DNA of 64,000 nucleotides, from NCBI RefSeq assembly GCF_057098645.1, contig NZ_CM169472.1, one strand, 5' to 3'. Below are positions 27,223 through 63,968 of the stretch, piece after piece (position 1 is the stretch's first letter; each line of letters opens with the position of its first letter). A program made the position numbers and the translations under genes. Under the pieces are notes generated by a model. It made no database searches. It was given only the letters and a program-made list of their open reading frames with translations, and had not been told where the DNA came from.

Positions 27223-28878
27223 TTAATCAGATTTAATCTGCGCGCGTGGTGGATATTTTTTCAGGATCTCCATATACGCGTGCATTTCGGTCTGTAGCGG
27301 TACACCCATCGGAATATGGCGCACGCCGATAGAGTCGCTCTCCTGCGGATCGGTGTACAGGTTAAACACCGACGATCCGGCTGTTTGCATTACTGTGCCG
27401 GTGAATCCACCCTGATATCCGCTCTGGGTATAAGCGTAAGGTTGCTGAATCAGGACGTGATACTTGAATTCATCCATACGCACAGCAGCGAGTTTACCGT
27501 TGAGGAAGTAGTGCTCGGCCTTACGGTTAGACTGACCATTTGTTCCCAGGAAGAAAGATGTCTGGTCCACACCATCGATAAAGGTGGTTTTCGGCACTAA
27601 ATTCGCCACTTTCGCGCCAGGATGCCCTGCCAGATCCAGCGCGGTAGGGAAGAGATCTGCCAGATCGACAATACCGTCAGATTTACGCGGTTGGATCATC
27701 CCTTTCCAGTACACGAAAGTCGGAACGCGAACGCCGCCTTCCCAGGTCGAACCTTTCGCACCACGGAACGGTGTGCGTCCGTGCGGCGGTACTTCGGCTT
27801 CCGGTCCGTTATCGGAGGTAAAGACAATCAGCGTGTTATCAAGCTGACCGTTTTTTTCCAGTGCTTTATACAGATTAGCGAACACATCGTTCATTTCCAC
27901 CATGCAGTCGCCATACGAGGTGCGTGCCGGAGAGCTACCCGCATATTTGGCGTTCGGGTAGTTATCGAAGTGACAGCCGCGAGTGCCGTAATAGAGGAAG
28001 AAAGGCTTATCACTCTTCGCCATCTTGTCGAGGAACTTAACGCCATATTCCATCCAGCGTTGATCCAGATCTTCCATATATTTCGGCGTAATGTCGGCAA
28101 TGGCCTGTTGTTCGCCGCCGCGCACCGCATGAACGTCATCTTTGCTAAATGGTAATTGCTTGATGTATTCAGAACGGTCCGGACTCAGGGCCACTTCCGG
28201 GTTTACGTGAACGTCGCGCCATTCGGTGTACATATCAGACACCGAGTTAAAGCCACGGAAATCATCAAAGCCAACGTTCTGCGGCTGCGACTCTTTGTTT
28301 TCCCCCATATGCCATTTCCCGATGGCCTGAGTGACGTAGCCCTGATCGTGCAGCAACTGCGGCAGCGTGGTTAACCCTTGCAGCCCGCCCGGTTGCCCAT
28401 ACATTGGCGGCATCAGAATGCCGTGGTGGATGGAGTATTGTCCGGTGAGAATAGTGGCGCGGGTTGGGGAAGAGCTTGGTTGAGAATACGCCGAAGTTAA
28501 AATCAGCCCCTGGCTGGCAACGGCGTCGATATCTGGTGTATGGTTACCCACTGCCACGCCGCCACCGTTAAAACCGACGTCCATCCAGCCCACATCGTCC
28601 AGCAAGAAAACAACCACATTCGGTTTCTTACCGGTTTTTTTCTCAAGTTCTGCCAGCTTCTGCTGGGTTTCTTTATCCTGCGCCGGATGCTGCATTACTG
28701 GCATCATGTTGTCGGCAATAGTGGTCGCCGGTTTAACCAGATACTGGTTTGGGTGATCGTATCCGGCAAAGCCTTTGCGTGCGGTGGCAGTTGACGGGGT
28801 ATCTGCTGCGCTGGCCATGAGAGGAAGAGCGGCGGCGACAGCAACAACAAGACGTTTGGGTGAAAACGAAAATTCCAT
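27223..28878 (-). CDS. aslA: arylsulfatase (sulfatase family, signal peptide)
   Basis: 551-aa ORF with N-terminal signal and the sulfatase CxPxR-type motif region (SSPTRAT). Confidence 0.9.
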
Positions 28879-29302
28879 GCAAAATGCTCCGGTTTCATGT
28901 CATCAAAATGATGACGTAATTAAGCATTGATAATTGAGATCCCTCTCCCTGACAGGATGATTACATAAATAATAGTGATAAAAATAAATTATTTATTTAT
29001 CCAAGAAATGAATTTAAAAATCAGGAGAGCGTTTTCAATCCTACCTCTGGCACAGTTGATATGTAAGGCAGGTTTATTATATCGCGTTGATTATTGATGC
29101 TGTTTTTAGTTTTAACGGCAATTAATATATGTGTTATTAATTGAATGAATTTTATCATTCATAATAAGTATGTGTAGAATCAAGCTCAGGGTAAATATTC
29201 ACTCAGAAAGTTATTACTCAGGAAGCCAAGAGGATTACAGAATTATCTCATAACAAGTGTTAAGGGATGTTATTTCCCGATTCTCTGTGGCATAATAAAC
29301 GA

Positions 29303-47636: not shown

Positions 47637-47759
47637 CGGTTGTCAGCGACCTCAATTTTTCCCGTCGCGCTGAGTCAGGCTGTTTAATGGTCTGAAACCC
47701 AATTTGTTTCTGTGTGCCCACCGAACTGTCCGATATTTTAAGCATTGGGAGTCCCGGTC

Positions 47760-48710
47760 ATGCTGAGCGCATTTCAACTGGAAAATAACCGACTGACCCG
47801 GCTGGAAGTCGAAGAGTCACAACCCCTTGTAAATGCAGTATGGATTGATCTTGTCGAACCGGACGACGACGAGCGACTGCGCGTACAATCTGAACTTGGC
47901 CAGAGCCTGGCAACCCGCCCGGAACTGGAAGACATCGAAGCATCGGCACGTTTCTTTGAAGACGACGACGGCCTGCATATTCACTCCTTCTTCTTCTTTG
48001 AAGATGCGGAAGATCACGCCGGTAACTCCACTGTGGCATTTACCATCCGTGATGGTCGTCTGTTTACTCTGCGTGAGCGTGAACTGCCCGCTTTTCGTCT
48101 GTATCGTATGCGTGCCCGTAGCCAGTCGATGGTAGACGGTAACGCCTACGAGTTGCTGCTGGATTTGTTCGAAACCAAAATCGAACAGTTGGCAGATGAA
48201 ATTGAAAATATCTATAGCGACCTGGAGCAATTGAGCCGGGTGATTATGGAAGGGCATCAGGGCGATGAGTACGACGAGGCGCTCTCCACTCTGGCGGAAC
48301 TGGAAGATATCGGCTGGAAAGTTCGCCTGTGTCTGATGGATACCCAGCGCGCTCTCAACTTCCTGGTACGTAAAGCACGCTTACCGGGTGGGCAACTGGA
48401 GCAGGCGCGTGAAATCCTGCGAGATATCGAATCCCTGCTGCCGCATAACGAATCCCTGTTCCAGAAGGTGAACTTCCTGATGCAGGCGGCAATGGGTTTT
48501 ATCAACATCGAGCAGAACCGCATCATCAAAATTTTCTCGGTGGTATCCGTCGTGTTCCTGCCGCCAACGCTGGTTGCTTCCAGCTACGGGATGAACTTTG
48601 AGTTTATGCCAGAACTGAAGTGGAGTTTCGGCTACCCAGGCGCGATTATCTTTATGATCCTCGCGGGCCTGGCACCGTATCTGTACTTTAAGCGGAAGAA
48701 CTGGTTGTAA
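47760..48710 (+). CDS. corA: magnesium/cobalt transport protein CorA
   Basis: 316-aa product [31 protein letters not shown]... ending ...[41 protein letters not shown] (GMN motif). Confidence 0.96.
48574..48710 (+). repeat. direct repeat copy 1: corA 3' terminus (about 94-95% identical to 50277-50413)
   Basis: base-by-base alignment of the two stretches shows the same length, no indels and a handful of substitutions. Confidence 0.85.
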
Positions 48711-48717
48711 TATGAGT

Positions 48718-48745
48718 GCCGGATAAAGCTATTTTTTTATCCGGC
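48718..48745. terminator. hairpin terminator after corA, shared with the convergent islet gene
   Basis: gccggataaa-gctatttt-tttatccggc followed by a T-rich tract. Confidence 0.7.
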
Positions 48746-48751
48746 TTATTT

Positions 48752-49243
48752 CTAAAAATTGTCTTTTTTAAAGTCATGCGGATTGAAAACTCGCTCTATT
48801 TTATTTTCTTGTGTTAATTGATACTCAGTAAAATCGTTAATACCAATATGAGTGTTACGATAAGGGTATTCATTAATAACCATTAAGTAATTTTTCACGA
48901 TGCAATTATCATTGCTCTTAATTGTCGGGAAACAGTAGAGATCTTCATACGGCCCTTCGATATATTTTTTATAGTCAGTGAAGCCATTACCGATATCAAT
49001 GACATACCAGATATGCCAACTACCTTCTGGTAGGGGATGTTGATTTTTAATTTCATTCTGATGCTTCAGATACCAATTTATTTTATCGCTGTCAGTCCAT
49101 GGCAGATGATCAACGACCAGAAAGACTGAATTGCCAGCATCAGAGTATGTATACAAAATCTGTACAGGACGCAATGTCCATAAATTATAGATACAGCATA
49201 GAAGAAATAAACATAATATAATTTTCTGGCGTTTGCTTTTCAT
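48752..49243 (-). CDS. hypothetical membrane-anchored protein (N-terminal TM helix, extracytoplasmic domain); candidate partner of the upstream gene
   Basis: 163-aa ORF MKSKRQKIILCLFLLCCIYNLWTL...; very AT-rich codon usage; starts 27 bp after the upstream gene's stop. Confidence 0.6.
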   Translation of the reverse strand: MKSKRQKIILCLFLLCCIYNLWTLRPVQILYTYSDAGNSVFLVVDHLPWTDSDKINWYLKHQNEIKNQHPLPEGSWHIWYVIDIGNGFTDYKKYIEGPYEDLYCFPTIKSNDNCIVKNYLMVINEYPYRNTHIGINDFTEYQLTQENKIERVFNPHDFKKDNF

Positions 49244-49270
49244 AGATAATTTTCGATTCTTTCGATAGTG

Positions 49271-50084
49271 TTAAAATTGGTGAAAAAAGGTTTGAAAGCA
49301 AAGCCTTTATGCCGTTGTAAAAAGAACCATATGCGAAAAAATCTATATTTGCTGTAAGTCTTGTTTTTGATATCAGTTACATCAAGACCGAAGTGGTCCT
49401 GTGCTACAAAATGAATTGTCGCACTCCACCCTATAGCGTATTTTTGAAAGCTTAAAAGAGATATTTTTTGAGCTGAAATATCATGAACACTGATTCCTAA
49501 GCCATTAAAACTGTCCTCGAAGTCATTAAATTTATTTAGTCTTGATGAAAGTAATTTGGTTTTAATGCTTTGCAGGATAAGAGGTTGGTATCCTGTCGAG
49601 GGAGTTGAATTAATGCCATTTTCGATACATTCTTTGATTATTCGTATTGGACTATTATAACCATATTTATTTTTTCATGAAAAGATAAATTTAATTGTTG
49701 GCTATGAAAATTGCTGCCATTTCCATATCTAAAATGTTCAATCAGATCTTCGATAAGTGTTTTATATTGTCCAAAAAAGGAAAAAATTTTTGCTAGTTCT
49801 TTCATTTCTGCAAATAAAATATCAGTGCATTCACGTTGTGATATTTTTGTTCCGGAACTTGAGGCACTAAAAGCAACATTAATAGAACCTGGGCCAGGGA
49901 AATGGTATTTAATAAGTCTGTAAGGATCAACTTTTGCTGAGATATCGCTTAGGCCGAGTGAGAGAAAATCTTGTTCTACCATATCACCATATTGCATATC
50001 ATCAGCAGAATAATCATCAAATAAACTAATAGTTTCGAAAAGTGTACAGGGAATATTAATTGATGGAAGTAATGTGTTATTCAT
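49271..50084 (-). pseudogene. hypothetical protein of about 270 aa interrupted by a -1 frameshift at an A6 run (148-aa N-terminal ORF plus about 125 in-frame codons lacking any start codon)
   Basis: ORF 49638-50084 ends ...SFHEKINMVIIVQYE*; the next frame stays open from the overlap catgAAAAAAtaaatatgg down to the stop at 49271 and contains no ATG/GTG/TTG. Confidence 0.6.
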
Positions 50085-50209
50085 TTACATTTTCCTTGGT
50101 TATATTTAAGCTCAATATCAATTTGAGAACAAATGCTAGGGTAAAAAAAATTTAAAAAAGAAGTACACTTCACATTTTTATTACATTCCGAAGGGAATCT
50201 CGTTATTGA

Positions 50210-50413
50210 TTGGTTTTGCCCATTGTTAATAACAATATGTTGAATTTACCGATTAGGAAACTTTTTCCTACGCGGATTGCCTCCAGCTATGGGATGAACT
50301 TTGAGTTTATGCCAGAACTGAAGTGGAGTTTCGGCTACCCTGGCGCGATTATCTTTATGATCCTCGCGGGCCTGGCACCGCATCTGTACTTTAAGCGTAA
50401 GAACTGGCTGTAA
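50210..50413 (+). pseudogene. displaced corA 3' fragment (last ~46 codons, [11 protein letters not shown] end); not an independent gene
   Basis: 67-aa ORF whose C-terminal 45 residues equal the CorA C-terminus with one Y to H change; no corA N-terminal region upstream. Confidence 0.8.
50277..50413 (+). repeat. direct repeat copy 2 of the corA 3' terminus
   Basis: offset of exactly 1703 bp from copy 1. Confidence 0.85.
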
Positions 50414-50419
50414 CTATAC

Positions 50420-50462
50420 GATGTCGCTGTGAGTAAGTTAGTGTGCTGACAGCGACATTTTA
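50420..50462. terminator. hairpin terminator after the displaced corA 3' end, shared with the convergent DUF805 gene
   Basis: gatgtcgctgt...acagcgacat inverted repeat followed by tttag. Confidence 0.6.
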
Positions 50463-50824
50463 GCCGAGGGAATCGCAGATAACATAATTGTTGTGAATAA
50501 TATCCATGCCACGTTGAGTTGGACGCTTAATGACTCACATCTCACCCCTTCAATTGCTGCAGAGATAATAGAAAAAAGTGTTAAACCCAATGAAATCAAT
50601 ACAAAGTAGATTGCCTTACATCCAGTATCTCTTATTCTTTTTGCTCCAATATTGATATTTACATAGGTATTATTAATAACCAGAATAAAACTCAAAGCCA
50701 GGTTGATATCATTCAAAGTTATTAATATTGACCATGATGTTAATGTATAGATTATGAACTGAAAGCGTGATAAACGCTCAAGCCTGGATGGGTAGAATAT
50801 ATTTCTGATGGATGATTTGAACAT
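50438..50824 (-). CDS. DUF805-family small inner-membrane protein (yigF-like position)
   Basis: 128-aa ORF with 3-4 TM segments and a KRIRDTG motif resembling the DUF805 RRxHD signature; AT-rich. Confidence 0.6.
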   Translation of the reverse strand: MFKSSIRNIFYPSRLERLSRFQFIIYTLTSWSILITLNDINLALSFILVINNTYVNINIGAKRIRDTGCKAIYFVLISLGLTLFSIISAAIEGVRCESLSVQLNVAWILFTTIMLSAIPSAKMSLSAH

Positions 50825-50883
50825 TTTTTACATTGTTTTATATATATAATTGTTTTGAATATATATTACCTGAATTATGTGGT

Positions 50884-50901
50884 TTGCATATATATATGCA
50901 A
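50884..50901. promoter_or_regulatory. perfect 18-bp palindrome in the AT-rich divergent promoter region
   Basis: TTGCATATATATATGCAA reads identically on both strands. Confidence 0.5.
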
Positions 50902-51063
50902 TATAGCAGTCTTTGCATTGATAACTACACAGTAGTAATTTAGAGTGTGTAAGTTTTTATTGATAGGGTATATTTTAATTAAATATAATTGGAATGTATT
51001 TTTATTCTATAAACAATATATTGGGTGAATGGATTCTATATGGGAAATGGTAACTTTTGGTAG

Positions 51064-51339
51064 TTGTTCTTGGGTAAAGAACCTTACAGCAAAAAATCTG
51101 ATTTTGTTAAGGCATGGTTATTGTGGTGGGCTATTACCATCCTTGTTCTATTTATTTTAAGCCTGACTACGACATTAAATTTAAGAAGTATAGGTATAGG
51201 GTTAAGTTTTGGGTTTTGTCAAATCCTTGGTAGATATACGATGTCTCTAGGATGGAGTAAGTACTGGGGAGTTTTGGGGGTATTTCCTGTAACAAATATT
51301 GTTCTTTTTCTTATCTTAATTTTTTTCAAAAAAAGATAA
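51064..51339 (+). CDS. small hydrophobic inner-membrane protein (yigG-like position), TTG start
   Basis: 91-aa ORF with two or three TM segments, convergent with rarD and sharing a hairpin. Confidence 0.5.
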   Translation: MFLGKEPYSKKSDFVKAWLLWWAITILVLFILSLTTTLNLRSIGIGLSFGFCQILGRYTMSLGWSKYWGVLGVFPVTNIVLFLILIFFKKR

Positions 51340-51348
51340 ATAAGTCAG

Positions 51349-51376
51349 TGGGTAGGCTCTTTAAACGGCCTACCCA
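51349..51376. terminator. bidirectional hairpin between the small membrane gene and rarD
   Basis: gggtaggc-tctttaaacg-gcctaccc. Confidence 0.65.
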
Positions 51377-51385
51377 TGTTAATTC

Positions 51386-52273
51386 TTAACTTTTTCTACG
51401 CTGCGTATAAATCGCATCCATCACAAAAATTGCCAGCGCCACCCAAATAAAGGCGAAAGTCACCATCTTATCGGCACCCGGTTTTTCACCATAAAACGTC
51501 ACAGCCAGCAGGAACATCAGCGTCGGGCCAATGTACTGGAAAAAGCCTAACGTTGAGAGACGCAAGCGCGTGGCAGCGGCAGTAAAACACAACAGCGGTA
51601 CGGTAGTGACAATACCGGCGGCGATCAGCAGTAAATTCAGCGACATCGGGTTTTGCCCCATATGGCTGGTTGAGCTGTCGGCAATAGCAAACAGGTAAAT
51701 CGCCGCCACGGGCAGCAGCCACATGGTTTCAATTAACATGCCGGTTTGTGCTTCTACCGCAATCTTCTTGCGCACCAGGCCGTAGAAGGCAAAACTAAAT
51801 GCCAGCCCCAGCGCGATAATAGGTAGCGAACCAAAAGTCCACAGCTGGACCAACACGCCACATATCGCCAGAATCACCGCCAGCCATTGCATCCGGCGGA
51901 ATCGCTCGCCGAGGAAAATCATCCCCAGCACAATGTTCACCAGCGGGTTAATAAAGTAACCAAGGCTCGCTTCCAGCATATGGTGATTGTTCACAGCCCA
52001 GATAAACAGTAGCCAGTTGCCACCAATCAGCACGGCAGAGACTGCCAGCATAAAAATTTTCTGTGGCGTCTGAATCAGCGTTTTTAAATAGGACCACTGG
52101 CGGCAAATGCTCATCAGCACCACCATAAAGAAAAACGACCAGATCACGCGATGCGTCAGGATTTCATCGGCGGGCACGTAGTAAATCAACTTGAAGTACG
52201 CTGGGGCTATACCCCAAATAAAATAAGCGGCAAGAGCGAGTAATACGCCCTGCCGCGTTTGTTTTGCATCCAT
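51386..52273 (-). CDS. rarD: EamA/DMT-family transporter RarD
   Basis: 295-aa 10-TM protein MDAKQTRQGVLLALAAYFIWGIAPAYFKLIYYVPADEILTHRV... Confidence 0.92.
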   Translation of the reverse strand: MDAKQTRQGVLLALAAYFIWGIAPAYFKLIYYVPADEILTHRVIWSFFFMVVLMSICRQWSYLKTLIQTPQKIFMLAVSAVLIGGNWLLFIWAVNNHHMLEASLGYFINPLVNIVLGMIFLGERFRRMQWLAVILAICGVLVQLWTFGSLPIIALGLAFSFAFYGLVRKKIAVEAQTGMLIETMWLLPVAAIYLFAIADSSTSHMGQNPMSLNLLLIAAGIVTTVPLLCFTAAATRLRLSTLGFFQYIGPTLMFLLAVTFYGEKPGADKMVTFAFIWVALAIFVMDAIYTQRRKS

Positions 52274-63548: not shown

Positions 63549-63692
63549 AACAACGCGCACTTTGCCAATAATCTGATGGCTTCCATCACCGGAAGCCATT
63601 TTGCTATCTGCGCCCGTTCAGATACAGAAATAACCGAATCATTTTTACGCAAAATATAATCCTGAGCGATTTGTTCAGTAATCAACGCTACG

Positions 63693-63968
63693 TTATTTAT
63701 TCTCACTTTTCACGAAATTGTATCCCTTTTCAGTAACGTGGTAGTGAGGCATAGACTTATGTCCGCTATCCTCAATAATAACCAAACCCTCGTTAGCTAA
63801 TTTGTTAACAATGTTAACAACATTACCGAATCCTGGAATTTGCCTTATGGATAGTGTGCGATCGAGATTCATCCAGTTCCAGTTTATATCTTTCTCAGCC
63901 ATAACTTTCAGTACGTTAATTTCAGTTTCAGTTATCATAGTCAAGTGCATCCTGGTGGTATAAGTCAT
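63693..63968 (-). CDS. small winged-helix (MarR/PadR-like) DNA-binding protein, hypothetical; AT-rich accessory ORF
   Basis: 91-aa ORF with strong RBS (aagggagaa) 8 bp before ATG 63968; abrupt drop in GC relative to metE. Confidence 0.55.
   Translation of the reverse strand: MTYTTRMHLTMITETEINVLKVMAEKDINWNWMNLDRTLSIRQIPGFGNVVNIVNKLANEGLVIIEDSGHKSMPHYHVTEKGYNFVKSENK

Follow-up and report, generated by a model that had tools for sequence, protein, structure and literature searches.

The AT-rich segment at 50825-51063 of the window (the whole 64-kb stretch of Escherichia coli DNA that was analysed) is probably the divergent promoter spacer of a two-gene cassette, with a perfect palindrome that is an incidental by-product of a length-variable (AT)n repeat. 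The feature as a whole is ordinary, an AT-rich divergent promoter spacer with a microsatellite by-product palindrome; it is of little regulatory import, and the palindrome should not carry an operator annotation. The descriptive yield of the analysis is that the corA-rarD slot of E. coli holds two independently varying AT-rich cassettes, that the window-type cassette corresponds to the Salmonella arrangement and takes the place that the yigF-yigG genes have in K-12, and that this cassette, cassette B, holds a 128-aa gene that is under selection but routinely unannotated.

Anatomy of the divergent spacer and its flanking genes

The first-pass annotation had described 50825-51063 as extremely AT-rich, and the base composition bears this out: the segment has 23.4% GC and is the most AT-rich 239-bp stretch of the window, since all intervals of that length at or below 23.4% GC fall within 50780-51065. 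Its description as a divergent AT-rich intergenic region also holds, but the right boundary at 51063 had to be moved, as the plus-strand gene starts at the ATG at 51040 and the true spacer is thus 50825-51039. The elements of the spacer and the genes that flank it are as follows.

50438-50824, minus strand: ORF128, gene for a 128-aa YigG-like small membrane protein (PRK11371, YigG BLASTP, dN/dS)
50825-51039: true divergent spacer, which separates the yigG-like ORF from the 99-aa gene, 215 bp, 22% GC
50832-50865: tandem 17-bp duplication, ATTGTTTTATATATATA / ATTGTTTTGAATATATA, which holds the other two (TA)n tracts of the spacer
50884-50901, no strand: perfect palindrome TTGC(AT)5GCAA, also the third copy of the direct repeat TTTGnATATATAT
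50902-50965: block with the highest conservation in the spacer, at 88-89% identity to divergent lineages, with the rest of the spacer outside the palindrome at 67-75%
50918-50946: promoter-like P1, TTGATA-17-TAGAGT, within the conserved block 50902-50965
50960-50989, plus strand: promoter-like P2, TTGATA-18-TATAAT, the best sigma-70-like match (11/12)
51040-51339, plus strand: ORF99, gene for a 99-aa membrane protein (ECs_4748 of Sakai), broken in the window by a TAG at codon 8
51348-51377, plus strand: terminator-like hairpin that separates the 99-aa gene from the convergent rarD, kept in the deletion scar of strain S87

From the matches to sigma-70-like sites we infer that the spacer is used as a promoter region. 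P2 is the likely promoter of the 99-aa gene, judged by its sequence; most of the other E. coli strains inspected have TTGATG as its -35 hexamer. The 99-aa gene would probably be transcribed from the sites at 50918-50946 and/or 50960-50989, which lie in or next to the sole well-conserved block of the spacer, and the minus strand of the spacer displays weak promoter-like matches only, scoring 8 to 8.5/12. An Rfam scan of 48.6-51.5 kb at E ≤ 1 gave no match.

The minus-strand gene had been labelled as DUF805, and this label did not withstand comparison with the family: ORF128 scores 12.9 bits against Pfam DUF805 (E=0.16), below the Pfam gathering cut-off of 25.7. Against NCBIfam PRK11371 it gives E=7e-6, far below the equivalog cut-off, and a BLASTP comparison to YigG gives E=6e-5; the protein can also be aligned with all members of the family, and ORF128 is better described as a distant YigG-like protein. 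ORF128 was annotated in none of the RefSeq records inspected, including that of Sakai, although identical copies of its sequence occur on more than 1000 deposited contigs. The Salmonella orthologue is 48% identical. The start codon of ORF128 is ATA in P15-385, UC4315 and SCU-106, and no obvious Shine-Dalgarno sequence was found for the gene.

The plus-strand gene encodes 99 aa in seven other strains, in all of which the start is equivalent to the ATG at 51040. Codon 8 (51061-51063) is TAG in the window and its closest relative, H1, only, and CAG in the others; as a result of the stop codon, PGAP calls a 91-aa remnant that begins at the TTG at 51064. Both genes are under purifying selection with dN/dS values of 0.12-0.25, the whole of this range being covered by ORF128, whereas ORF99 gives ~0.23 against L013, a locus of a divergent E. 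coli lineage. Synonymous divergence from L013 and from strain AF3 reaches 0.2-0.4 in ORF128, and the same values were obtained for ORF99 against L013. No regulator gene adjoins the cassette or lies inside it, and the neighbours are genes for small membrane proteins. None of the four proteins encoded by the two cassettes of the locus matched the PADLOC defence models, and searches of the literature on ECs4747/ECs4748 and STM3953/STM3954 yielded no regulatory data for these genes.

Origin and variation of the palindrome

The palindrome TTGCATATATATATGCAA at 50884-50901 is, as had been claimed, perfect over 18 bp and its own reverse complement, and it is the longest perfect palindrome across the 64-kb window, the runner-up having 16 bp. 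It is built from an (AT)5 core with 4-bp complementary flanks. When the sequence was shuffled with preservation of dinucleotides, perfect palindromes of at least 18 bp appeared in 0.97% of shuffles of the spacer and in 1.9% of shuffles of the low-GC islet around it, and the palindrome is mildly unusual by this measure (P = 0.01-0.02) and not compelling. Since the (AT)5 run already provides 10 self-complementary bases, only 4 further matching pairs are needed to form it. The spacer of L013 contains another perfect 18-bp palindrome, TATATTTAATTAAATATA, at L013:588-605, equivalent to ~50971-50989 of the window, where the counterpart is rendered imperfect by one extra T; palindromes therefore evidently arise readily at this composition.

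It is most likely that the palindrome is incidental, an (AT)5 microsatellite flanked by chance by TTGC and GCAA. The simplest account of its origin, as the arrangement of the repeats suggests, would be local duplication followed by slippage: a local duplication would have copied the unit TTGTTTTnATATATA three times, with the palindrome lying inside one of the copies, and replication slippage would shift the tract between (AT)4 and (AT)5. The third copy of the unit TTTGnATATATAT, at 50880-50895, constitutes the left arm and core of the palindrome, and a second TA tract of the spacer also varies by one repeat between strains.

Comparison of strains revealed two common forms. The (AT)5 form, TTGC(AT)5GCAA, is found in the window, O157, FORC_028 and P15-385, and the (AT)4 form, TTGC(AT)4GCAA, in Ceylon31, UC4315 and SCU-106, and the perfect palindrome is thus polymorphic in length, 16 or 18 bp, within the main E. 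coli clade. Among the ~1430 E. coli genomes with cassette B, ~73% carry (AT)5, ~23% (AT)4 and ~3% other forms, shares that derive from 60 evenly spaced rows over the 1433 matching genomes and in which the allele was inferred via match length and identity classes calibrated on aligned examples. The (AT)n alleles track SNP haplotypes, both of which include examples of (AT)4. Symmetry is lost in the divergent E. coli lineage, where the sequence is TTGTTATATCCATGCAA in AF3 and TTGCTATATCTATGCAA in L013. At the equivalent place no palindrome of at least 10 bp was found in either of the two non-E. coli orthologous spacers compared, those of Salmonella enterica and of a second taxon (L016). The identity of the successive parts of the spacer to L013 and to AF3, respectively, is given below.

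Left spacer: 67% and 68%
Palindrome: 89% and 78%
Block 50902-50965: 88% and 89%
Right spacer: 75% and 71%

The segment of the palindrome (78-89%) is somewhat better kept than the left spacer (67-68%), and it may be under weak constraint; across lineages, the alignments indicate that the palindrome is not conserved. Perfect palindromes based on (AT)n in DNA of 20-25% GC appear and vanish between lineages, and comparative support is needed before they are read as binding sites.

These data bear directly on the earlier interpretation of the palindrome as typical of the operator of a dimeric regulator, which would control one or both of the divergent genes. An operator would be consistent with the perfect dyad symmetry (shuffle P about 0.01), with outer arms, TTGC and GCAA, that are retained in L013 as well as in the (AT)4 and (AT)5 alleles, with a third copy of TTTGCAT 30 bp downstream (50913-50919) and with the position of the palindrome, the centre of which, from the coordinates, would lie ~60 bp upstream of the predicted start of P1. 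However, the spacing between the TTGC and GCAA arms in natural alleles is 10, 8 or 9 bp, which is hard to reconcile with the fixed operator of a rigid dimer, one arm is mutated in AF3, and neither the Salmonella nor the L016 spacer has the element, even though the two flanking genes are conserved in these taxa. In addition, the cassette and its neighbourhood lack a regulator gene, and no second site resembling TTGCAT-N6-ATGCAA (at most 2 mismatches) occurs in the 64 kb. Taken together, the variable length, the broken symmetry and the absence from the orthologous spacers make an operator unlikely.

Two known types of site were compared with the palindrome. The octamers are weakly CytR-like, with 6-7/8 matches to the CytR consensus, but CytR needs a partner CRP site and none is present, and a CytR site was rejected; scans of the spacer with the CRP, LexA, FNR, Fur and IHF consensus sequences gave no match. 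The LexA box, CTGT(AT)4ACAG, is a palindromic operator of a dimeric regulator, and it resembles the palindrome in being a perfect dyad with an alternating AT core. Unlike the LexA box, the palindrome has no CTG/CAG arms, its spacing varies between alleles, it is not conserved in the orthologues and no cognate regulator gene is near.

The variation in tract length could also be taken to mean that (AT)n switches the minus-strand yigG-like gene by changing the length of a promoter spacer, in a way similar to that of the hif genes. In 1993, van Ham et al. reportedly described a phase switch at Haemophilus influenzae hifA/hifB that depends on a (TA)n repeat between divergent promoters. The likeness lies in a TA repeat in a divergent promoter spacer with a repeat number that is variable between strains, whereas the window locus has 4-5 repeats, two haplotype-linked alleles and a -35/-10 placement that is only predicted (8/12 match). 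In the window the candidate promoter would be TTGCAT-16-CATAAT, on the minus strand from 50901 to 50874, and the change from (AT)5 to (AT)4 would shorten its spacer from 16 to 14 bp and turn it off. The tract does lie inside the spacer of this weak promoter-like match, (AT)4 occurs on two SNP haplotypes and the two other TA tracts of the spacer vary too, but known dinucleotide switches have ~9 repeats or more, the -35 hexamer matches at 3/6 positions and the site falls under the scan threshold. Moreover, there are two alleles only, which follow the SNP haplotypes, and 915 of the 1433 genomes carry essentially the same 108-mer, at least 99% identical to that of O157, which indicates a slow polymorphism and not rapid switching. 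We consider a switch very unlikely. It is equally improbable that the (TA)n tracts serve as heritable 'tuning knobs' of expression, with (AT)4 and (AT)5 altering the -35/-10 spacing of the same candidate promoter; if this were true, the levels of the YigG-like protein would be lineage-specific, in a slow population-level analogue of hif-type phase variation.

Base composition, DNA structure and H-NS

The (TA)n tracts had also been proposed to be prone to cruciform formation or H-NS binding. The palindrome could be a structural element, in that it forms a cruciform or nucleates H-NS specifically and so starts the silencing of the islet. Alternating TA sequences bend and melt easily, TpA accounts for a fraction of 0.178 of all dinucleotides in the spacer (0.045 across the window), and high-affinity H-NS sites have a central T-A step, as in proV TCGATATATT (PMC2094087). 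Nevertheless, when folded as single-stranded DNA the palindrome gives -4.9 kcal/mol (z = -1.64), a stability that 13 of 200 shuffles also reach. The hairpin is weak, its stability is not clearly above the composition background, and the palindrome is no notable cruciform candidate. Nor does the element coincide with H-NS-like sites. We scored the motif tCGATAAATT/TCGATATATT (PMC2094087) with a match of at least 8/10, and no site at this threshold overlaps the palindrome; the only ones in the spacer are at 51013-51024, and the best in the islet (9/10) sit in the neighbouring cassette A. The element is, moreover, not conserved, and a structural role is very unlikely.

A different matter is binding of H-NS to the cassette as a whole, which we infer to be plausible from composition, motif density and publications on the K-12 allele of the slot. 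The GC content is 22-23% in the spacer, 30-36% in the islet and ~52% in the rest of the window, and H-NS-motif-like sites (at least 8/10) are found at 10.1 per kb in the islet versus 2.6 per kb elsewhere, a difference of ~4-fold. The enrichment of these sites and of TpA is largely driven by composition. H-NS occupancy correlates with AT content genome-wide in Salmonella (PMC1550270), and in Sakai low-GC, strain-specific segments are bound by H-NS (PMC4764244). In the supplementary data of published H-NS ChIP studies on Sakai and Salmonella, no values specific to the cassette B locus were found. The K-12 yigF-yigG genes have been described as a 'promoter island' (PMC3661553), as an extended protein occupancy domain (PMC8282354) and as the site of an H-NS-repressed intragenic promoter (PMC7229825). 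H-NS/StpA probably coat the cassette and damp its expression, as with other E. coli DNA of 22-35% GC, and such coating would be governed by the overall AT and TpA content rather than by the palindrome.

The corA-rarD slot and its cassettes

The order of the genes in this part of the window is corA, the low-GC islet, rarD, yigI, pldA and recQ. No low-GC block of the window is larger than the islet (48.7-51.36 kb); two further short low-GC patches, with 32-37% GC, are present at 28801-29280 and 63601-63840. Comparison with 5426 complete E. coli genomes revealed that the islet consists of two independently varying cassettes. The features outside the spacer are as follows.

47745-48710: corA
48711-50413, minus strand for 48711-50266: cassette A, with the DUF943 gene, the DUF3289/YPO3983 gene and the duplicate of the corA 3' end
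48752-49243, minus strand: DUF943 gene of cassette A
49240-50084, minus strand: DUF3289/YPO3983 gene of cassette A, frameshifted
50267-50413, plus strand: 147-bp duplicate of the corA 3' end at the junction of cassettes A and B, annotated as a partial CorA pseudogene
50414-51385: cassette B, which holds the spacer, ORF128 and ORF99
51386-52273, minus strand: rarD

In the even sample of E. coli rows, cassette A is found in about half, independent of cassette B, and it pairs either with a K-12-type yigF-yigG, as in PS10-3, or with cassette B, as in the window. It seems to have entered the slot through recombination within corA and to have supplied a new 3' end for that gene. In comparison with Z1323HEC0422, a 4-bp deletion at 49664 frameshifts the DUF3289/YPO3983 gene of the window, which is left with 148 aa versus 282 aa. 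With this frameshift and the nonsense codon in the 99-aa gene, the islet is decaying in the source strain.

Cassette B is present in ~1430 of the 5426 complete genomes (26%), always on the chromosome. Strain AF3 has it but lacks cassette A, and in K-12 the position is taken by yigF-yigG; cassette B is one among several alternative occupants of this slot in E. coli. In AF3 (L010) the cassette is mosaic, and its breakpoint is near 51050: ORF128 (dS 0.22) and most of the spacer are divergent, whereas ORF99 (dS 0.017) is near-identical to that of the main clade, which indicates recombination inside the cassette. An apparent 'empty site' in S87 (L011 2996-3125) was rejected as an ancestral state; it is a deletion scar in which ~68 bp from the start and ~58 bp from the end of cassette B survive, about 50482-51327 having been removed.

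The K-12 yigF-yigG allele resembles cassette B in occupying the same slot, in having genes of 33-35% GC and in encoding small membrane proteins that include a YigG homologue, and it is documented in the literature as silenced AT-rich DNA. In contrast, its sequence cannot be aligned with cassette B, H-NS binding is known for the K-12 allele only, and, since both K-12 genes are on the minus strand, it has neither a divergent spacer nor the palindrome. A closer counterpart is found in Salmonella enterica, where corA and rarD flank the same divergent gene pair, at 48-60% amino-acid identity; the species of this locus (L015) was set by its PldA and RarD proteins. The Salmonella cassette, with 126/157-aa and 98-aa genes, is syntenic and has an AT-rich spacer of 25% GC, but the spacer is ~175 bp long and lacks both the palindrome and the triple TA-tract repeat. 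The second non-E. coli taxon, L016, also carries the divergent pair.

The whole segment at 48.7-51.3 kb had been suggested to be xenogeneically silenced accessory DNA. The segment is indeed accessory in the sense that it varies between strains, with cassette B in about a quarter of the genomes and yigF-yigG in K-12, but a xenogeneic origin is doubtful. The Salmonella orthologue of cassette B is equally low in GC, with genes of 34-36% against 53-54% in the flanking rarD and corA, and no integrase or insertion sequence was found in the islet. No match to cassette B was found in phage records or on true plasmids, the sole 'plasmid' records being CP061233.1 (1.0 Mb) and NZ_OL790696.1 (4.8 Mb). Given the syntenic Salmonella orthologue and the lack of phage and plasmid copies, recent import seems unlikely, and cassette B looks like an old, fast-evolving resident allele of the slot that is exchanged by homologous recombination. 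The two PLSDB records themselves are likely chromosomes or chromosome fragments misfiled as plasmids.

Searches for relatives of the cassette proteins brought up several anomalous records. An apparent relative with 51% identity (P0027) was rejected as an artefact of an indel-ridden E. coli assembly, GCA_002230675.1 (L012), in which single-base indels throughout corA, rarD and the cassette give rise to spurious 'divergent' proteins. A scan of the GTDB representative genomes with the 99-aa family returned only 4 loci and added no new orthologous spacers. One of the four is on an Escherichia sp. contig that ends within the spacer; the other three are in gut metagenome-assembled genomes of Collinsella, Clostridium and Alistipes (L020, L021 and L022), which contain the E. 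coli 99-aa gene at 98-99% identity and probably represent mis-binned E. coli DNA.
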